From a virus, in the UHGV virus genome UHGV-0305798: a stretch of 32,780 bases of DNA; one strand, given 5' to 3'. Below the pieces are notes generated by a model. It was not told the DNA's origin, made no database searches, and saw nothing but the letters and a program-made list of their open reading frames with translations. The position numbers were made by a program, and so were the translations under genes. Positions 6,985 to 28,956 of the stretch are shown one piece after another. The first letter of the stretch is position 1. Every line of letters starts with the position of its first letter.

Positions 6985-7407
6985 TTAGAAGGTTATTTTA
7001 TCGAATGCGGCGTTGATTGCCTTGGCGTCCTGCTCAGCACCAACCACATCAAGTAAAGATCTTTTACTAAGCACTTCAGCCAGGCATTGTAACTTCATGT
7101 TGTATAAGTTTTCGCGCATGTAATCATCATCACTTTTTTCTTTGGCGTATACAGCGCGAGAAATATCAAACACATTGCCTTTTTCCATTTCAGTTTTCTG
7201 CGCTGAAATCCAGTCATGGCAAGTAACTCCTATTCCATGGTCATCGCTAAGCGTTAACCCGGCAAGTCGCTCACCTGGAATTGCTTCACAAAGCATTTCA
7301 TTTCCTGCAAAAACACCATAAAAAATTGAGTCATCACCCTGAACAATGCGTACATATTTGCACGGCCATTCATTTAGATATTTAGCTAGCATGTCGGCTG
7401 TTTTCAT
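6985..7407 (-). CDS. hypothetical protein (140 aa), reverse-strand insert between terminase and portal
   Basis: ATG at 7407 preceded by AAGGTGAG; clean ORF; looks AT-richer than flanking genes by eye; no family recognised. Confidence 0.6.
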   Translation of the reverse strand: MKTADMLAKYLNEWPCKYVRIVQGDDSIFYGVFAGNEMLCEAIPGERLAGLTLSDDHGIGVTCHDWISAQKTEMEKGNVFDISRAVYAKEKSDDDYMRENLYNMKLQCLAEVLSKRSLLDVVGAEQDAKAINAAFDKITF

Positions 7408-7424: not shown

Positions 7425-7448
7425 ATGCCCGGCGAACCGGGCTGTACT
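7425..7448 (-). terminator. rho-independent terminator (minus strand) between tRNA and the 140-aa gene
   Basis: Minus-strand reading GCCCGG-ttcg-CCGGGC followed by ATTTTTTT, immediately upstream of the gene's RBS. Confidence 0.4.
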
Positions 7449-7572
7449 GGTTTACAGCATGAAGTCATCGCAATGGCGTCCTGCTGTAAAAAGGGCGGTG
7501 ATAGTTCTTCAAGGGAAACCATCACCGCCAAGCCCCTGGAACTTCTGGCATCACGGTCCTTAGGCGTGATTC

Positions 7573-7649
7573 TGGCGTGGCATGCAGGATTCGAACCTGC
7601 GACCAACCGCTTAGAAGGCGGTTGCTCTGTCCGACTGAGCTAATGCCAC
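7573..7649 (-). tRNA. tRNA-Arg (anticodon UCU)
   Basis: Minus-strand sequence GTGGCATTAGCTCAGTCGGACAGAGCAACCGCCTTCTAAGCGGTTGGTCGCAGGTTCGAATCCTGCATGCCACGCCA folds as a cloverleaf: 7-bp acceptor stem, D arm, anticodon stem ACCGC/GCGGT with loop CTTCTAA, T loop TTCGAAT, encoded CCA end. Confidence 0.85.
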
Positions 7650-12860: not shown

Positions 12861-13466
12861 ATGGCCTCTGTAGTAGAGATCTGCAATCGTGCGCTGTCCA
12901 ATATTGGCAACAGCCGCAGTATTAACAGCCTGACGGAAGCCAGCAAGGAAGCGGGGGAATGTTCGCTGCACTTTGAGGCCTGCCGTGATGCTGTGCTTTC
13001 TGATTTTGACTGGAACTTTGCTACCAAACGCGTGGCGCTTGCAGATACGAGCAATCCGCCGCCAGACTGGGAATACGCATACCAGTACCCGTCCGATTGT
13101 CTGCGCATTACTGAAATTATGCTTCCTGGTGTACGCAATCCAACAGCAGCAATGCGCGTTCAGTACGAAGTTGGTGCAGACACCGACGGAACAGGAAAGT
13201 TGATCTACACAGACCAGCCTCAGGCATGGCTCAAGTATGTCTCTCGCGTTACAGATGTGAACATGTTTGATGCCATTTTTATGGAGGCGTTGGCCTGGCG
13301 TCTTGCGGCAGCTATTAACATGGCGCTGACTGGGAATGCAGACCTCGGTACGTTTGCCCTCAATATGTACAATCGCGTGATTCTTAGTGCTGGCTCGCAT
13401 AGCCAGAATGAATCACAGGAACCACAGCCACCGGTTGACGAGTTTACCATTGCGAGGTTGTCCTGA
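12861..13466 (+). CDS. tail tubular protein A-like (adaptor), putative
   Basis: 201 aa, directly upstream of and overlapping the gp12-like gene; N-terminus (VVEICNRALSNIG) loosely resembles T7 gp11. Call is mainly by position and size. Confidence 0.5.
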   Translation: MASVVEICNRALSNIGNSRSINSLTEASKEAGECSLHFEACRDAVLSDFDWNFATKRVALADTSNPPPDWEYAYQYPSDCLRITEIMLPGVRNPTAAMRVQYEVGADTDGTGKLIYTDQPQAWLKYVSRVTDVNMFDAIFMEALAWRLAAAINMALTGNADLGTFALNMYNRVILSAGSHSQNESQEPQPPVDEFTIARLS

Positions 13467-15937
13467 TGGCTATCAGTTGGATCCAGCCCAGCTTTGCCGG
13501 TGGTGAGATTGGACCGTCGTTGTACGGTCGTATCGACATGGCGAAGTACCAGGTGGCATTGCGCAAGTGCGATAACTTTATCGTGCGGCAGTATGGCGGC
13601 GTTGAGAATCGACCTGGTACGCGTTTTGTCGGTGCCGCCAAATACCCAAATCGGAAATGCCGCCTGATCCCGTTCCAGTTCTCGACGGTTCAGACCTATG
13701 CTCTGGAGTTCGGACACCAGTACATGCGCGTTATCAAAGATGGTGCGTTGGTGCTGAACAGCAGCAATGTTATTTATGAAATTGCCACGCCATATACTGA
13801 AGCCGATCTGTACCGAATTAAATTCACGCAAAGCGCAGACGTGCTTACGCTGGTTCATCCGGCATACCCGCCGAAAGAGTTGCGCCGCTATGCGCATGAC
13901 AACTGGCAACTGGTTGATGTGGTAACGAAGAACGGGCCATTTGAAGATATCAATATTGACGATTCAGTGACGGTTTATGCCAGCGCCAGCACCGGGACAA
14001 TTACGTTAACGGCAAGCGCCTCAATTTTTGGCGCGGAGCAGGTAGGCAAATTGTTCTATCTGGAACAGCCTGCAGTGGATTCTGTGCCGGTATGGGAAAC
14101 CAGTAAGAGTACGTCGATTGGCGATATTCGCCGTGCAGACAGTAACTACTATCGCGCCGTTACAGCAGGCAAAACAGGCACTTTGCGCCCTTCGCATACA
14201 GAAGGCACATCATGGGATGGCTGGGGCGGATCCGGTGATGATGATACCGGCATTGAGTGGGAGTATCTGCACAGTGGTTTTGGCATTGCCCGTATCTCTG
14301 CTGCAAATGGAACTACTGCAACTGCCGAGGTGATTTCCTATATCCCTTCGCAGGTAGTTGGCGAGGATAATGCCAGCTATAAATGGGCTAAATATGCCTG
14401 GAACAGTATTAACGGTTATCCTGGCACTGTTGTTTATTATCAACAACGCCTTTACTTCGCCGCATCGACTGCGTTCCCTCAGACTATCTGGGCCAGCCGT
14501 ACCGGGGATTATAAGGATTTTGGCAAAAGCAATCCTACGCAGGATGACGACAGAATTATCTACACCTATGCCGGGCGTCAGGTTAATGAGATCCGTCACC
14601 TGATTGATGTTGGTTCGCTGGTGGCGCTGACTTCCGGAGGTGAGTACGTCATCACTGGCGACCAGAACAAAGTGCTTACCCCATCATCATTTGCATTCAG
14701 CTCTCAGGGATCAAATGGCTCGAGCAATGTCCCACCAATTGCCGTGGCGAATATTGCTCTGTTCGTCCAGGAGAAAGGCAGTGTTGTCCGTGATCTGGCC
14801 TACTCATTCGATGTTGACGGCTATCAGGGGAACGACCTGACCATCCTTGCCAATCATCTTTTTCAGAAGCACAGCATTGTTGACTGGTGCTTCTCGATTG
14901 TCCCTTACTCCAGCGCCTTCTGCATTCGTGATGACGGTAAATTACTGGTGATGACCTATTTGCGTGATCAGCAGGTTTTTGCATGGGCACCACAATCCAG
15001 TACCGGAAAATATGAAAGCACATGCAGTATCAGCGAAGGCAATGAAGATGCGGTGTATTTCGTCGTTAACCGAACCGTTAACGGGCAAACAGTGAGATAC
15101 ATAGAGCGACTGTCCAGCCGTTTATTTACCAGCGATGAAGATGCTTTCTTTGTTGATTCTGGCCTTAGCTATGATGGAAGAAATACGTCTGACAGAACGA
15201 TGATCGTCACTGGTGGTTCTGGCGAATGGGATTACCGCGCGGAATATACAATCAGTGTTTCTGGTGGTGCGTACTTCACCAGTAGTGATGTCGGTGCTCA
15301 ACTACAGTTCCCTTATACCGGAACTGATCCTGATACTGGCGATGAAGTGTCAAAAGAATTACGTTGCGACATCATTTCTGTAACCAGCAATACCGCTGTA
15401 GTGGTTCGTGCTAACAGGAACGTCCCGCCATCCCTCAGGAATGTGGCTACCACGAACTGGCAGATGGCGCGCCGGACATTTGGAGGCCTGTCTCATCTTG
15501 AAGGCCAGACCGTAAACATTCTCTCTGATGCGAACGTGGAACCACAGAAAGTGGTTTCCGGAGGTGCCGTCACGCTGGAATCACCTGGGGCTGTTGTGCA
15601 CATCGGCCTGCCAATAACTGCTGAATTCGAAACACTGGATATCAACATTAACGGACAGGAAACGCTGCTGGACAAAAAACAGGTGATCCCCTCCGTTACT
15701 CTGGTTGTGAATGCCAGTCGCGGCATCTGGGCGACTACGCCCGGCGGTAAATGGTACGAATATCCACAGCGTGAATTCGAGTTCTACGATGATCCTGTTG
15801 ATGATGCTACCGGAAAAGTAGAAGTGAAACTGGACAGTAACTGGGGCAAAAACGGACGTGTAAGAATCCGTCAGCTTGACCCGTTGCCGCTGTCTGTTCT
15901 TGCCGTTATTCCTCGCCTTACTGTTGGGGGATTCTGA
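13466..15937 (+). CDS. tail tubular protein B-like (nozzle), T7 gp12-like
   Basis: 823 aa; an internal block (FAASTAFPQTIWASRTGDYKDFGKSNPTQDDDRIIYTY...LVALTSGGEYVITG) resembles the conserved region of T7 gp12 (recall-based). Confidence 0.65.
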   Translation: MAISWIQPSFAGGEIGPSLYGRIDMAKYQVALRKCDNFIVRQYGGVENRPGTRFVGAAKYPNRKCRLIPFQFSTVQTYALEFGHQYMRVIKDGALVLNSSNVIYEIATPYTEADLYRIKFTQSADVLTLVHPAYPPKELRRYAHDNWQLVDVVTKNGPFEDINIDDSVTVYASASTGTITLTASASIFGAEQVGKLFYLEQPAVDSVPVWETSKSTSIGDIRRADSNYYRAVTAGKTGTLRPSHTEGTSWDGWGGSGDDDTGIEWEYLHSGFGIARISAANGTTATAEVISYIPSQVVGEDNASYKWAKYAWNSINGYPGTVVYYQQRLYFAASTAFPQTIWASRTGDYKDFGKSNPTQDDDRIIYTYAGRQVNEIRHLIDVGSLVALTSGGEYVITGDQNKVLTPSSFAFSSQGSNGSSNVPPIAVANIALFVQEKGSVVRDLAYSFDVDGYQGNDLTILANHLFQKHSIVDWCFSIVPYSSAFCIRDDGKLLVMTYLRDQQVFAWAPQSSTGKYESTCSISEGNEDAVYFVVNRTVNGQTVRYIERLSSRLFTSDEDAFFVDSGLSYDGRNTSDRTMIVTGGSGEWDYRAEYTISVSGGAYFTSSDVGAQLQFPYTGTDPDTGDEVSKELRCDIISVTSNTAVVVRANRNVPPSLRNVATTNWQMARRTFGGLSHLEGQTVNILSDANVEPQKVVSGGAVTLESPGAVVHIGLPITAEFETLDININGQETLLDKKQVIPSVTLVVNASRGIWATTPGGKWYEYPQREFEFYDDPVDDATGKVEVKLDSNWGKNGRVRIRQLDPLPLSVLAVIPRLTVGGF

Positions 15938-24254: not shown

Positions 24255-24887
24255 TTAATGCAGTTTATCTTTGCTTATAACCAGTAGTCTGTGGGTATGC
24301 ACATCTTTATCACTGCCCCAACAGAAATCAGCCCACTGGCTATAGAAATCATCCCATGATGTCATGAAGCTAAGAGGTCTATCTTCTTCAGAGCCATCTG
24401 AAACGTATACATTATATCCTGGGGTGTTTATAGCCCAAGAAATCATTCTTTCCCAGAATCTTCTCCCATCGATTGTTTGTTGCTCATCAGATACAACGAT
24501 CGCATATTGCTCTAGGAAGAACTGAAAAAAAATCTGAGGCAAACCATGAACAGCACGGTCATGAATAACATTAGGCGTACGCCATACCATGATCTGCGTA
24601 CATGTTCTTTTGGCTTCGACGATATCTTCCCGAAAGATTAACTTAACCGCATACACCGTTTCTGGAGTATCGCTGGTAGTAATCATTCTGTAATGATCGC
24701 CATTACAAGATTTTACAAGGCGATAACCATAAGGTGTTGTGAATCCCGGAAGAACGAAATCAACCACACCTTTCGCTAAGTAGCTTTCGGTGTGACTAGT
24801 GTTCTTCTCAGACATGTTCAGTTTTCTATCGAAATCTGCTTCTGGGATAATGTATGGCATCGCTTTTCTTGTTGTATTTGTTCTCAT
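24255..24887 (-). CDS. hypothetical protein (210 aa), reverse-strand accessory gene
   Basis: ATG at 24887 preceded by GGGAGG at 5 nt; own terminator downstream and palindromic site upstream; AT-rich by eye; no family recognised. Confidence 0.6.
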   Translation of the reverse strand: MRTNTTRKAMPYIIPEADFDRKLNMSEKNTSHTESYLAKGVVDFVLPGFTTPYGYRLVKSCNGDHYRMITTSDTPETVYAVKLIFREDIVEAKRTCTQIMVWRTPNVIHDRAVHGLPQIFFQFFLEQYAIVVSDEQQTIDGRRFWERMISWAINTPGYNVYVSDGSEEDRPLSFMTSWDDFYSQWADFCWGSDKDVHTHRLLVISKDKLH

Positions 24888-24946
24888 TTCGTCCTCCCAT
24901 GTTTGGCTACAGGACGCGTTTTGAAGGGAAGATTAAAAATGCTTTC

Positions 24947-24961
24947 TTACCCTTGAGGTAA
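24947..24961. promoter_or_regulatory. palindromic site TTACC-CTTGA-GGTAA (copy C)
   Basis: Read directly; about 60 bp upstream of the 210-aa gene start. Confidence 0.4.
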
Positions 24962-24997
24962 TAGTACGCTATTCACCCCCAGTCTGCAATCTGTACA

Positions 24998-25025
24998 GAA
25001 TTATTTAAAGGCACATCCCTGTGCC
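24998..25025 (-). terminator. possible terminator (minus strand) after antirepressor gene
   Basis: Minus-strand GGCAC-agggat-GTGCC followed by TTTAAATAATT; moderate. Confidence 0.35.
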
Positions 25026-25033
25026 GCCGCCCG

Positions 25034-25726
25034 TCAGAAGAACCCTGCCTTGTCGTTGATGTACTCCGCGTGGGTCTGGATATCACGCAGGCATTTGCTC
25101 ACACCAACGATGTAGCAGAACATGGTGGTCAGCTCCGCCGCCGCGCCCGATACGTCGTGCCCGTCTTCCTGTAACTGGTTCAGCAGATTCATCAGCAGTG
25201 AGTTCTCCGTCAGGCCGAGAACACCAGACGGAGAATGAATCAGGCTGCGGTAGCCGGGCTTCAGCGGGGCGCTGTAGGTTTTGTTCTCTATCTTCATTGC
25301 CTGCATCACTGCTGATGCTGTGGCGTTTGCAACCTGGTCGGCAACCATCTTTATGCGTTCTTCCTGCGGGAGCGAGTTTTTAATGTAACTTCCGGTGCGG
25401 CGGATCTGAGGAAGAACCTCACCTGTAACCCATTCAAGAAATCTGAATGCTCTCGTTCCCTCAGTCATTGCCTCTTTGCAACGCAGAATAAGGATGTAGA
25501 GACCTGATTCTGAAACGATGGATAGTTCTTGTATTCCACCAGGGGTCTGTATTGAATACAGCCCCTTTTTGTTCCAGCCTTTTTTATCAAGTTTTCTCGC
25601 TTGTGTAACATCAATATTCAAAGCATTGCACACATCTTTGGTGACAAACCAAGGTTCTCCGTCAATCATGAACATACGGATCTGGCAGGATGACTCAAAG
25701 GAAAAGATGGAAGGTTTGGTATTCAT
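25034..25726 (-). CDS. Bro-N domain antirepressor-like protein
   Basis: N-terminus (MNTKPSIFSFESSCQIRMFMIDGEPWFVTKDVCNALNI) matches the BRO-N signature of phage antirepressors; start at 25726 after AAAGGTGA (the ORF-track start 25771 adds 15 aa). C-terminal 70 aa are paralogous to the small gene at 26040..26297. Confidence 0.75.
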   Translation of the reverse strand: MNTKPSIFSFESSCQIRMFMIDGEPWFVTKDVCNALNIDVTQARKLDKKGWNKKGLYSIQTPGGIQELSIVSESGLYILILRCKEAMTEGTRAFRFLEWVTGEVLPQIRRTGSYIKNSLPQEERIKMVADQVANATASAVMQAMKIENKTYSAPLKPGYRSLIHSPSGVLGLTENSLLMNLLNQLQEDGHDVSGAAAELTTMFCYIVGVSKCLRDIQTHAEYINDKAGFF

Positions 25727-25880
25727 GGCGATCACCTTTGTAGTTAGGTTAATCACCACCGCTGAGACCAATCAGATGGTGGTGAACTGTGCAGAGTTGG
25801 TCTTACCGGCTACAAAGGAACCCGGCGCACCTTTCGGTGCCCCCACACAGCCCACCATAGAATAGGTGCGCTTTACACAT

Positions 25881-25906
25881 AAAAAAACCGCTTATGCGGC
25901 ATATGT
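25881..25906 (-). terminator. possible terminator (minus strand) downstream of the small LexA-box gene
   Basis: Minus-strand GCCGC-ataa-GCGGU followed by seven U; short stem, so moderate. Confidence 0.35.
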
Positions 25907-25993
25907 GCCTCTGTAGTAATCCGGGAGACCAATCCCGGCACTGGATTTTGCCAGTGCCCGATTACTATGGCACAAGAGGAGTGCGATGTAAAT

Positions 25994-26008
25994 TTACCGC
26001 AAAGGTAA
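25994..26008. promoter_or_regulatory. palindromic site TTACC-GCAAA-GGTAA (copy D)
   Basis: Read directly; extended palindrome ATTTACC-GCAAA-GGTAAAT; lies between the antirepressor and the small paralogous gene. Confidence 0.4.
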
Positions 26009-26039
26009 ATATAAGCACTCCATTTGGTAATTGCAAACC

Positions 26040-26297
26040 TTATCTGGTTTGTTTTCGTAATTGTTCGGCACAATAGTCGAGATGTGTTTGCAGATCCTGC
26101 ATAGACATCTGTGAGCTGGTGACGTAGTTAATCAGTGCAGTCAGTTCGGCAAGTGGGCCATCGACATTAAATCCATCCTTATCGAGATCCCGGAGTAATT
26201 TCATCAAGTGCGATCCCTCCACCAGTGACCTGACGCCTCCCGGCGTGTGAATCCTTTCGGTAAATCCGTCTTCCAGTGGATAGTGATACTGCTGCAT
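26040..26297 (-). CDS. small antirepressor-like protein (Tum-like, about 85 aa)
   Basis: About 40% identical by eye to the C-terminal domain of the adjacent antirepressor (shared IH-P-GV, AELT, DxQTHxxY motifs). ATG at 26297 has GGAG at 9 nt; alternative ATG at 26312. A LexA box lies immediately upstream. Confidence 0.6.
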   Translation of the reverse strand: MQQYHYPLEDGFTERIHTPGGVRSLVEGSHLMKLLRDLDKDGFNVDGPLAELTALINYVTSSQMSMQDLQTHLDYCAEQLRKQTR

Positions 26298-26317
26298 CTT
26301 AATCTTCTCCATGCAAT

Positions 26318-26337
26318 AACTGTATATTTATACAGTA
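26318..26337. promoter_or_regulatory. LexA (SOS) box
   Basis: AACTGTATATTTATACAGTA matches the CTGT-N8-ACAG consensus (TACTGTATATATATACAGTA) at 18 of 20 positions; sits just upstream of the small antirepressor-like gene. Confidence 0.7.
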
Positions 26338-26389: not shown

Positions 26390-26493
26390 TATCTATTCAT
26401 ATTCACAGTCTTTCTATCCATATATGGTTTTTTGGGTAATAGAATAACCAGATATGCGGCGCAACGGGTGCTGCGACTATCTGGAGATTTAAC

Positions 26494-28956
26494 ATGACGG
26501 TCTCAACCGAAGTTGACCACAACGAATACACAGGTAACGGCGTTACGACATCATTTCCGTATACCTTCCGTATTTTCAAAAAATCCGACCTGGTTGTTCA
26601 GGTGTCTGACCTTAACGGTAACGTTACAAAACTAGTGCTGGATGCTGGTTATACGGTAACAGGGGCGGGAACTTATAGTGGCGGTGCAGTGGTTCTTCCG
26701 TCGCCGCTTGCTGCTGGCTGGCGAATCACGATAGAGCGTGTGCTTGATGTGGTGCAGGAGACTGATCTTCGCAATCAGGGAAAATTTTTCCCCGAAGTTC
26801 ATGAGGATGCATTTGACTACCTGACGATGCTGATCCAGCGATGTTTTGGGTGGTTCAGACGTGCATTGATGAAACCATCTTTGCTTGCAAAATATTACGA
26901 TGCAAAGCAAAACAGAATATCTAACCTTGCAGATCCATCATTTGAGCAGGACGCTGTAAATAATCGCTCAATGCGCAATTATGTCGATGCTGCAATCGCC
27001 GGGGTTGTTGGTGGTTTTGGTTGGTTTATTCAGTATGGTTCTGGAGCGGTATACAGAACACTCCAAGATAAGATGCGTGATGGTGTCAGCATTAAGGATT
27101 TTGGAGCTCAAAATGGAATCTTAAATGATAACAAGGAGTCTTTTACAAAATCATCACATTCGTTTAGCAGTGTTTTTGTTCCGGAAGGGGTATTCAATAC
27201 ATCTTTAGTTTCTCTTTCACGTTGTGGCTTGTACGGAACAGGTGGGGGAACGATAAAACAGTATGACAGAGATGGTAATCATCTGGTTTTTAACATGCCC
27301 GATGGTGGCATGCTTAGTACGCTAACAATTATGGGAAATAAATCAGATGATAGTGTGCAGGGACACCAGGTGTCATTTTCAGGTGGCCATGATGTATCGG
27401 TTAAAAATATCAGATTTACAAATACGCGAGGACCAGGATTTAGCTTGATCGCTTATCCGAATAATGGTATTCCGTCAGGTTACATTGTTAGAGATATAAG
27501 AGGAGAGTATTTAGGGTTCGCAAATAATAAAAAAGCAGGTTGTGTGCTTTTTGATTCATCGCAAAACACGCTAATTGATGGTGTGATAGCCAGAAATTAT
27601 CCTCAGTTTGGTGCAGTGGAACTTAAAACAGCAGCAAAATATAACATTGTCAGCAATGTTATTGGTGAAGAGTGTCAGCACGTTGTTTACAATGGAACTG
27701 AGACGGAAACTGCCCCAACGAATAATATCATTAGCAGTGTAATGGCTAACAACCCAAAATACGCCGCAGTAGTTGTTGGCAAGGGGACTGGTAACCTGAT
27801 TTCGGATGTGCTGGTTGATTACTCTGAATCGGACGCAACGCAGGCGCACGGCGTCACCGTTCAGGGAAATAATAATATTGCCAGTAATATTCTAATGACT
27901 GGGTGTGACGGGAAAAATGAATCAGGAGATCTGCAGAAATCTACAACCATTCGTTTCTTAAATGCTGCAGGCAGTAATTATGCGTCAATATTCCCCATGT
28001 ATAGTTCTTCTGGCGTGGTTACCTTCGAGGAAGGGTGTATCAGGAACTTTGTTGAAATTAAACATCCGGGTGATAGAAATAATATTCTGAGTTCTGCATC
28101 AGCGGTGACTGGTATTTCCAGTATAGACGGCACTACAAATAGCAATGTTGTTCACGTCCCTGCGCTTGGTCAGTACATTGGGACTATGTCAGGGCGTTTT
28201 GAATGGTGGGTTAAATATTTTAACCTTGCTAACCAGACGCTTGTTTCTGCAGATAAATTCAGAATGCTTGCTGAAGGAGATGTATCTCTGGCTGTGGGAG
28301 GCGGTATAAGGTCGCAATTGAAATTATTCAATAGTGATAATACTAAAGGCACTATGTCGCTAATAAATGGAAATATTCGAATATCTACTGGAAATTCAGA
28401 ATATATACAGTTTTCTGATTCAGCCATGACACCATCGACAACGAATACTTATTCTCTTGGGTTGGCTGGTCGTGCATGGTCGGGGGGATTTACCCAGTCA
28501 GCGTTTACGGTGCTGTCCGATGCGCGTTTCAAGACTGCTCCAGAGGTTATTGATGAGAAAATACTGGACGCATGGGAAAGAGTGGAATGGGTTTCATACC
28601 AGTACCTTGACAGGATCGAAGTGAAAGGTAAAGACGGAGCAAGATGGCACTTTGGTGCAGTTGCGCAGCATGTTATCAGTGTATTTCAGAATGAAGGCAT
28701 AGATGTGTCACGACTGGCATTTATCTGTTATGACAAGTGGAATGAGACCCCGGCAGAATACAGGGATGTGACGGAAGAAGAGCATTCTGCAGGAGTTTAC
28801 CCACTTATACAGACAAAGGTTCTGGTACGCGAAGCCGTCGAGGCTGGTGAATGTTACGGTATCCGTTATGAAGAGGCTCTGATTCTGGAATCTGCGATGA
28901 TGAGACGCAGGGTTAAAAAGCTGGAAGAGCAAGTTTTGCAATTAACAGGGAATTGA
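26494..28956 (+). CDS. tailspike/tail fiber with T7 gp17-like N-terminal domain and C-terminal intramolecular chaperone domain
   Basis: N-terminal 110 aa follow the T7 gp17 particle-binding pattern. Central region is Gly/Asn/Thr-rich with repetitive beta-strand-like segments, consistent with a beta-helix. C-terminal block (SDARFKTAPEVIDEKILDAWERVEWVSYQY...WHFGAVAQHV...EALILESAMMRR) matches the self-cleaving chaperone domain (peptidase S74-like) of endosialidase-type tailspikes. Confidence 0.85.
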   Translation: MTVSTEVDHNEYTGNGVTTSFPYTFRIFKKSDLVVQVSDLNGNVTKLVLDAGYTVTGAGTYSGGAVVLPSPLAAGWRITIERVLDVVQETDLRNQGKFFPEVHEDAFDYLTMLIQRCFGWFRRALMKPSLLAKYYDAKQNRISNLADPSFEQDAVNNRSMRNYVDAAIAGVVGGFGWFIQYGSGAVYRTLQDKMRDGVSIKDFGAQNGILNDNKESFTKSSHSFSSVFVPEGVFNTSLVSLSRCGLYGTGGGTIKQYDRDGNHLVFNMPDGGMLSTLTIMGNKSDDSVQGHQVSFSGGHDVSVKNIRFTNTRGPGFSLIAYPNNGIPSGYIVRDIRGEYLGFANNKKAGCVLFDSSQNTLIDGVIARNYPQFGAVELKTAAKYNIVSNVIGEECQHVVYNGTETETAPTNNIISSVMANNPKYAAVVVGKGTGNLISDVLVDYSESDATQAHGVTVQGNNNIASNILMTGCDGKNESGDLQKSTTIRFLNAAGSNYASIFPMYSSSGVVTFEEGCIRNFVEIKHPGDRNNILSSASAVTGISSIDGTTNSNVVHVPALGQYIGTMSGRFEWWVKYFNLANQTLVSADKFRMLAEGDVSLAVGGGIRSQLKLFNSDNTKGTMSLINGNIRISTGNSEYIQFSDSAMTPSTTNTYSLGLAGRAWSGGFTQSAFTVLSDARFKTAPEVIDEKILDAWERVEWVSYQYLDRIEVKGKDGARWHFGAVAQHVISVFQNEGIDVSRLAFICYDKWNETPAEYRDVTEEEHSAGVYPLIQTKVLVREAVEAGECYGIRYEEALILESAMMRRRVKKLEEQVLQLTGN

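Follow-up and report, generated by a model that had tools for sequence, protein, structure and literature searches.

The gene described here is located at positions 26494..28956 (+) of the UHGV virus genome UHGV-0305798, a stretch of 32,780 nucleotides that was analysed as a whole and is called the window in the following. Judged from its sequence, it very probably codes for the tailspike protein of an Escherichia coli prophage, a podovirus of the phiV10/epsilon15-like (Uetakevirus) type, and its product is predicted to be a lyase for the K5 capsule (heparosan). The open reading frame, taken from the list of open reading frames, starts with ATG and comprises 820 codons, and a Shine-Dalgarno sequence, GGAG, could be read 8 nt before the ATG at 26483..26486 (+). 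The initial annotation of this DNA had placed the gene at exactly these positions and divided it into an anchor, a body and a chaperone, and all three modules were found by matches with E-values that lie far outside chance. Computed masses were 89.7 kDa for the precursor, 72.8 kDa for the predicted mature protein (residues 1-675) and 16.9 kDa for the predicted released fragment. An identical public protein is WP_195254672.1, a member of a cluster that was formed at 90% identity and comprises 384 sequences of E. coli, in which the only names are 'tail fiber domain-containing protein' and 'phage tail protein', and no family was assigned to the tailspike protein in NCBIfam. A scan for promoters and terminators around the gene gave nothing exceeding the shuffled expectation. 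The gene encodes a kind of protein that is already known, as are its domains and its maturation.

The single-stranded right-handed parallel beta-helix lyase body (residues ~186-563; 27049..28182, +) was assigned from its identity to the K5 lyase KflA, from an AlphaFold model and from Foldseek. A sequence search of the PDB led to the tail spike of phage E1004 (9vvr; E 2.5e-223, residues 186-814) and to KflA (2x3h; E 1.1e-182, residues 199-675). Alignment with KflA as curated in UniProt (O09496, under the name 'Depolymerase, capsule K5-specific') gave 282 identical residues out of 474 (59%) with zero gaps, the KflA residue number being the tailspike number minus 170. Homologs named 'K5 lyase' are found in the phages UE-S5b, UE-M6 and ULINTec7. 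When residues 186-820 were modelled with AlphaFold, a predicted local distance difference test score (pLDDT) of 80-96 was obtained over residues ~196-525, with about 25 short strands. A Foldseek search with the body model gave 2x3h_A as the top match (E 3.4e-43, target-normalised template modelling score 0.74, 60% identity), followed by the spikes of HK620, Sf6, Det7, CBA120 and phi29 gp12 and by polygalacturonases; the Pfam family Beta_helix stayed below threshold on residues 278-437. The beta-helix depolymerase body that had been proposed as probable in the initial annotation is therefore found by sequence as well as in the predicted fold. The body is followed by the C-terminal trimerisation stalk (residues 564-675; 28183..28518, +), which lies ahead of the cleavage site and can be aligned with the C-terminal portion of the crystallised KflA chain. 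Residues 564-683 were poorly predicted as a monomer (pLDDT <50), as expected because the C-terminal strands of KflA are intertwined in the trimer (PMC8822698). For the C-terminal domain, identity to KflA was 51%.

A proposed catalytic patch of the body is formed by F372, E376, K378, H396 and Y399 (27607..27690, +), corresponding to F202, E206, K208, H226 and Y229 of KflA. We take E206, K208 and Y229, with F202 nearby, to be the catalytic residues proposed for KflA, a proposal that is said to go back to Thompson et al. in 2010; a literature search for KflA Glu206, Lys208 and Tyr229 found no paper quoting them. The KflA sequence does carry F, E, K and Y at positions 202, 206, 208 and 229, and the equivalent columns of the tailspike (F372, E376, K378 and Y399) were invariant in 17 diverse homologs save for one Y-to-F change.

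The same 17 homologs also have an invariant S675 and K680, the two residues of a Ser-Lys dyad in the autocleavage motif S675-D-A-R-F-K680 (28516..28533, +), which was assigned from homolog conservation and PDB alignment. Behind it lies the intramolecular chaperone domain (residues 676-820; 28519..28953, +), recognised by the Pfam family Peptidase_S74 (PF13884; 51.3 bits over residues 675-735, with the cutoff at 22, E 1.4e-13) and by PDB matches to endoNF (3gw6, 2.9e-20), GA-1 gp12 (3gud, 1.3e-20), the T5 fibre protein pb1 (4uw8, 1e-6) and AS12 gp42. The motif aligns with SDERHK, which opens the 3gud chain of the GA-1 gp12 chaperone, and the deposited mature KflA chain 2x3h terminates at the Ser equivalent to S675. 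Chaperone domains of the S74 type fold trimers and then release themselves, and ElmA has been named as the K5-lyase example (PMC8326128); a recombinant K5 depolymerase has been reported to migrate at 52 kDa, its size after proteolysis (PMC5696595). By analogy, the tailspike would cleave itself at Ser675 and release the predicted chaperone fragment after trimerisation, so that homology bears out the self-cleaving C-terminal domain of the initial annotation, with the cleavage as such a prediction. In endoNF, the chaperone (3gw6; Peptidase S74) and the preceding stalk motif are homologous to those of the tailspike (E 2.9e-20) and serve the same role of trimer folding with subsequent self-release (PMC8326128), but they are attached to a beta-propeller sialidase that is specific for the K1 capsule.

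Evidence on the substrate was also obtained from the capsule genes of the bacteria carrying the tailspike gene. The closest complete genome is that of E. coli strain 1436 (99.6% identity), and from the estimated position of its kps locus this lysogen was found to carry kfiA, kfiB, kfiC and kfiD, the genes of K5 biosynthesis. In this genome (NZ_CP184030.1, 799759-806675) kfiB and kfiC are annotated as frameshifted, with an IS481-family pseudogene between them; the frameshifts could be homopolymer sequencing errors or a real inactivation of the capsule in a strain that is lysogenic for a K5-specific phage. Of the 5426 complete E. coli genomes searched, 68 match the tailspike gene over at least 80% of its length. 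Co-occurrence was determined with a chimeric query consisting of the lyase body and kfiC, which matched at 338 places in 301 genomes with at most two places per genome; therefore, about 37 genomes have both. This corresponds to kfiC in ~37 of the 68 lyase carriers (~54%) compared with ~233 of 5358 non-carriers (~4%), an odds ratio of 26 (Fisher p 3e-31) that is overstated by clonal relatedness, as the counts ignore kinship. The probiotic K5 strain Nissle 1917 (NZ_CP171242.1, NZ_CM189242.1) has kfiC, and the lyase gene was not found in it. From this strain and the ~233 kfiC-positive genomes without the lyase it follows that the prophage is not general among K5 strains.

Therefore, from the homology to KflA, the intact proposed residues and the co-occurrence with kfi genes, the tailspike is predicted to be a capsule lyase and not an enzyme for O-antigen. 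The initial annotation had left both kinds of substrate open, of which the capsule stands and the O-antigen does not, and it had regarded the specificity as unreadable from sequence, a view that the same three observations contradict. Several points nevertheless weigh against the assignment to K5, in addition to the clonal inflation of the odds ratio. About 46% of the genomes with the lyase gene have no kfiC, an identity of 59% to KflA does not guarantee the same specificity, and the label in RefSeq and NCBIfam is the generic 'tail fiber domain-containing protein'.

As to the carriers lacking kfiC, one that was inspected, WP3-W18-CRE-03, has the K1 region 2 (neuB, neuC and a polysialyltransferase) in the same kps backbone. 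Sequence type 1193 (ST1193) of E. coli had K5 as its ancestral capsule and, before it expanded, acquired K1 in its place by recombination; strain MS10711 is K5, and MS10858, MS8320, MS8324, MCJCHV-1 and 09-02E are K1 (PMC11488385). The lyase spike gene was present at 99.2% identity in all six of these strains. WP3-W18-CRE-03, which is counted apart from the typed ST1193 strains, likewise keeps an intact K5-type spike at 99.2% identity; records of K1 strains that keep it are NZ_AP021963.1 (piece 22962-38959), NZ_CP058897.1 and NZ_CP030111.1. The spike of the K1 ST1193 strains thus fits the capsule of their ancestor rather than their own, because the capsule was switched after lysogeny, and the K5 assignment is not weakened by it. 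With a K1 locus in the same kps backbone and the published switch from K5 to K1, the carriers without kfiC were rejected as an argument against K5 specificity.

A tailspike with the same fold and the same lyase chemistry that acts on another substrate, a different uronic-acid-containing capsule or an O-antigen, may be considered in view of the 59% identity of the body, the nearly half of the carriers without kfiC, of which the one examined has a K1 locus, and the fact that tailspike bodies are known for changing specificity. We regard this as improbable, since the alignment is gapless over 474 residues with conserved proposed active-site residues, genomes with kfiC show an about 26-fold enrichment of the gene, the lysogens with a K1 locus come from a lineage with a K5 ancestor, and K1-specific prophages of the same type have an endosialidase instead. 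In addition, a chromosomal K5 lyase is on record with ElmA, which we take to be of the same length.

For the tailspike as a K5 lyase, the modules suggest a joint mechanism that we consider highly likely: folding of the trimer with help of the chaperone, self-cleavage at Ser675, docking by the anchor and beta-elimination of K5 heparosan; catalysis, cleavage and docking we infer by homology, and what was observed are the domain homologies, the conserved residues, the predicted fold, the genomic context and the association with kfi genes. Each chain of 89.7 kDa would be made with the C-terminal chaperone (residues 676-820), which would drive trimerisation and the folding of the intertwined stalk (residues ~564-675). 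The chaperone would then cut itself off at Ser675 with Lys680 as base, leaving a spike of 3 x 72.8 kDa, and the N-terminal beta-sandwich together with the helical neck (residues 1 to ~185) would fix the trimer to the adaptor and nozzle of the short tail. The beta-helix would cleave K5 heparosan by beta-elimination with E376, K378 and Y399 as the proposed catalytic residues, and this cleavage would open a way for the virion through the capsule down to the outer membrane.

Very probably, the tailspike is ElmA itself, the heparosan lyase that was cloned from the chromosome of E. coli K5, or else one of its alleles. ElmA, which presumably has 820 amino acids as does the open reading frame described here, was reportedly introduced by Legoux et al. 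in 1996 as the N-acetyl-heparosan lyase of E. coli K5. The name ElmA was absent from the source names read in the protein clusters of the tailspike and its homologs, and a variant with 89% identity to the tailspike exists (P0016). ElmA is listed as the prophage-borne K5 lyase of E. coli K5 (PMC3594737) and carries an intramolecular chaperone (PMC8326128), in both respects like the tailspike, and other work has made use of it as the endo-lyase for heparosan from E. coli K5 (PMC12834895, PMC9427770).

The relation to the well-described lyase KflA of the coliphages K5A and K1-5 is one of shared body and stalk (59% identical, no gaps) with the same Ser-Lys cleavage motif, but KflA has 632 amino acids with an N-terminal peptide of ~30 residues that binds a separate adaptor protein, and it belongs to SP6-like lytic phages (PMC5380687), whereas the tailspike has its own anchor of 185 residues and belongs to a temperate epsilon15/phiV10-like prophage. 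In the E1004 spike (9vvr) and the K5-lyase spikes of 843 amino acids from T7-like phages (Kayfunavirus), body and chaperone are 56% identical over residues 186-818. These spikes differ from the tailspike in their genuine T7 gp17-type N-terminus (PF03906 with 57 bits, and PF18668), which shows no detectable sequence similarity to the tailspike anchor.

Enzymatic activity could be questioned with regard to ES17-TFP, the tail fibre protein of phage ES17, which has a K5-lyase-like domain and was found to bind heparan sulfate, while lyase activity could not be detected (bioRxiv 10.1101/2020.07.20.212829). Accordingly, the tailspike might be an adhesin that binds heparosan or host heparan sulfate without cleavage and localises virions to the mucosa. 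We consider such a binding-only function very unlikely, as the likeness of ES17 to 2x3h is remote (E 4e-12; bioRxiv 10.1101/2020.07.20.212829) while the tailspike is 59% identical with E376, K378 and Y399 intact, and as ElmA and the phage K5 lyases are active enzymes (PMC5696595, PMC12834895, PMC9427770).

The N-terminal virion anchor of the tailspike (residues 1-185; 26494..27048, +) consists of a beta-sandwich (~residues 10-85) followed by a helical neck and is of the epsilon15/phiV10/Carin-1 type. Similarity to the Carin-1 spike Dpo31/Dpo36 (PDB 8ck1/28lx) was detected with E 4e-30 by sequence and 3.7e-41 by profile, and this spike was the sole PDB match of a profile built from 23 anchor sequences. 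In Carin-1, domain D1, located at the virion base, is a beta-sandwich of residues 8-87 with a coiled coil behind it (PMC13317679). The anchor model has strands at 11-82 and helices at 101-139 and is of low confidence (mean pLDDT 55, with only residues ~20-85 at 62-84). Among sequenced phages, the anchor is shared by HEMP4 (97%), E15 (70%), O157 typing phage 10 (68%), SPN1S (67%) and BPP-1 (33%), with 63-70% for the phiV10-type phages, and homologs also occur in the Pseudomonas phages AF and Ab31 and in Pelagibacter podophages. By sequence it is therefore a member of the epsilon15/phiV10/SPN1S/BPP-1/Carin-1 family. The spikes of the Uetakevirus group (epsilon15, SPN1S, phiV10, TL-2011b and HEMP4) have anchors homologous to that of the tailspike at 97% for HEMP4 and 63-70% for the epsilon15, SPN1S and phiV10 types, and the Carin-1 Dpo31/Dpo36 spike has one that is 46% identical, with homologous adaptor and nozzle partners. 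In both cases the bodies are unrelated (O-antigen hydrolases or deacetylases, and a left-handed beta-helix in Dpo31) and the specificities are others.

Membership of the anchor in the T7 gp17 family was considered and rejected, as Pfam, the PDB profile search and hhalign were all negative. The Pfam T7-fibre family PF03906 reached 18 bits, under its cutoff of 25.2, and covered only residues 135-161 (profile positions 123-149), a stretch that is the widespread fibre motif 'NLADP..DAVN'. The profile search of PDB sequences gave no T7 gp17 chain at E<=10, and hhalign of the anchor against genuine PF03906 N-termini returned a probability of 0.05%, with a shallow profile of 4 sequences on the PF03906 side. 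A Foldseek search with the poor anchor model (mean pLDDT as above) gave Carin-1 8ck1_B first (5.9e-9), then PhiM1, LME-1 and P-SCSP1u, and next the T7 gp17 N-terminus 7boz_a (6.5e-3, template modelling scores 0.29/0.42), Kp9, Kp7 and E1004, and also 7ey9; the podovirus fibre anchors all outranked unrelated folds. Of the 'gp17-type adaptor' of the initial annotation there remain an N-terminal virion-anchor module and a weak resemblance in fold within a low-confidence model, and a place in the gp17 family is lost by all sequence tests. The anchor is analogous to the gp17 N-terminus in its role and is possibly a distant relative or shares its fold.

Anchor and body meet in a junction or crossover zone (residues 186-205, VYRTLQDKMRDGVSIKDFGA; 27049..27108, +) that is common to homologs sharing the anchor and to those sharing the body: body homologs begin to align at residues 185-201 and anchor homologs stop at residues 165-250, with their overlap at the junction. 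On the one side, the anchor is joined at 56-95% identity to other bodies with pectate-lyase-3, Peptidase_G2, endosialidase and GDSL domains. On the other side, lyase body and chaperone stand behind at least five other N-termini, in proteins of 632-640 (K5A/K1-5 type), 755, 778 (Kagunavirus siphophages), 784 ('K5 lyase' of UE-S5b and UE-M6), 843 (T7-like) and 1012 amino acids. In total, 493 of the 5426 complete E. coli genomes match the gene, and the 425 of them beyond the full-length carriers share only its first 110-615 nt (up to ~205 codons); in other E. coli prophages, the similarity in DNA breaks off at nt 536-615 of the gene. With a GC content of 0.41-0.44, the body is also more AT-rich than the structural genes (~0.50). 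Horizontal exchange of the body, which the initial annotation had named as likely, is thus strongly supported by the anchor-only matches and by the unrelated bodies behind the same anchor. No record of the INPHARED phage collection covered the gene to at least 80%, that is, none had the full combination of this anchor with a K5-lyase body, and within the collections searched the combination was seen only in bacterial chromosomes. Prophages of K1 strains, for example CE10 (O7:K1, NC_017646.1) and APEC O18 (NZ_CP006830.1), carry the same anchor of 205 amino acids at ~92% DNA identity on an 'endosialidase catalytic beta-propeller'. The endosialidase spike is thus for K1 what the tailspike is for K5, on a phage chassis common to both.

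In strain 1436, the tailspike gene is located at the right end of the prophage. It is preceded by genes for a portal, a protease, the major capsid protein, a Bbp16-type cement protein, a gp10 capsid staple, a core protein of the T7 gp14 family and large internal proteins. Downstream of it come two holins, a GH19 endolysin and a spanin, and beyond these the host genes yfgI, yfgH and yfgG. Portal (PF12236) and GP7-type capsid protein (PF20911) were confirmed in the window by Pfam, and positions 622-24250 of the window showed 97-98% identity to phiV10-type phages (EC.W1-9, O157 typing phages 9 and 10, TL-2011b and phiV10). From this gene content next to yfgI and yfgH and from the identity of the backbone it follows that the element is an epsilon15/phiV10-like podovirus prophage. 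The window also encodes a tail adaptor of 201 amino acids, a homolog of the Carin-1 'connector' (12861..13466, +; PDB 8ck1_E, E 2e-26; phrog_394, tail protein), and a tail nozzle of 823 amino acids (13466..15937, +; PDB 8ck1_A 'Tail Nozzle', E 4.5e-216; phrog_376). As anchor, adaptor and nozzle all have their counterparts among the chains of 8ck1, the solved tail assembly of Carin-1, adaptor and nozzle would be the docking partners of the spike anchor.

The late region thus looks complete (portal, capsid, adaptor, nozzle, core proteins and lysis cassette) and is 97-98% identical to isolated phages, and four intact prophages have been counted in ST1193 (PMC11488385), so that a domesticated or remnant gene, outside an infectious virion and kept or not yet lost as a capsule-trimming enzyme of the host, is hardly to be expected, although ElmA was discovered as an enzyme encoded in the chromosome of E. 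coli K5 and although the gene is intact in K1 strains of ST1193, where it is useless for adsorption to kin; such a fate would concern the use and not the biochemistry of the protein and is compatible with a K5 lyase.

Between the injection genes and the spike gene lies a block of accessory genes (24255..26312, -) with a dip in GC content to 0.38-0.44. One of its genes encodes a protein of phrog_1349 (function unknown), and another a Bro-N/Ant-like antirepressor (25034..25771). The product of a third, small gene (26040..26312, -) is similar to the C-terminal portion of this antirepressor, and both proteins have matches to phrog_450 and phrog_15539. The divergent intergenic region contains a perfect LexA-box-like palindrome, CTGTATATTTATACAG, at 26320-26335, immediately upstream of the small gene 26040..26312 (-). 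The pattern CTGT-N8-ACAG has 2 copies in the window compared with 0.42 expected, the second at 7442-7457 upstream of the minus-strand open reading frame 6985..7407. Palindromes and antirepressor genes may together form an SOS-controlled antirepressor module. A tRNA-Arg gene (anticodon TCT) is located inside the prophage at 7573-7649 (-) and is annotated in related O157 typing phages, too.

With RefSeq giving the name 'tail fiber domain-containing protein' to a protein whose heparosan substrate can be inferred, the assignment as K5 lyase is first of all a gain in annotation. It could be used for predicting the host range of prophages and for choosing depolymerases against K5 strains of extraintestinal pathogenic E. 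coli, and it is of relevance for the bioprocessing of heparosan and heparin, where ElmA is already employed for chain trimming. The survey also shows how one anchor has been recombined with dozens of bodies, carrying an endosialidase where the strains are K1 and a K5 lyase where they are K5. Novelty, if there is any, lies solely in the side observation on ST1193. In this pandemic K1 clade, the intact spike, which would be an inheritance from the K5 ancestor, may be a molecular fossil of the capsule history and possibly a one-way weapon, in that virions would not adsorb to their own K1 clone and would attack K5 competitors including the ancestral K5 clade, a suggestion that we offer as speculative and rather doubtful. 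If it were true, mismatches between spike and capsule could serve to date capsule switches, and the mismatch could have contributed to the capsule switch or to the success of the clade. A study on Klebsiella from 2026 leaves open whether the depolymerases of prophages match the capsule of their host, given that capsules are switched (PMC13123978), and the K5 spike persisting in K1 strains of ST1193 is a concrete case of this question in E. coli.

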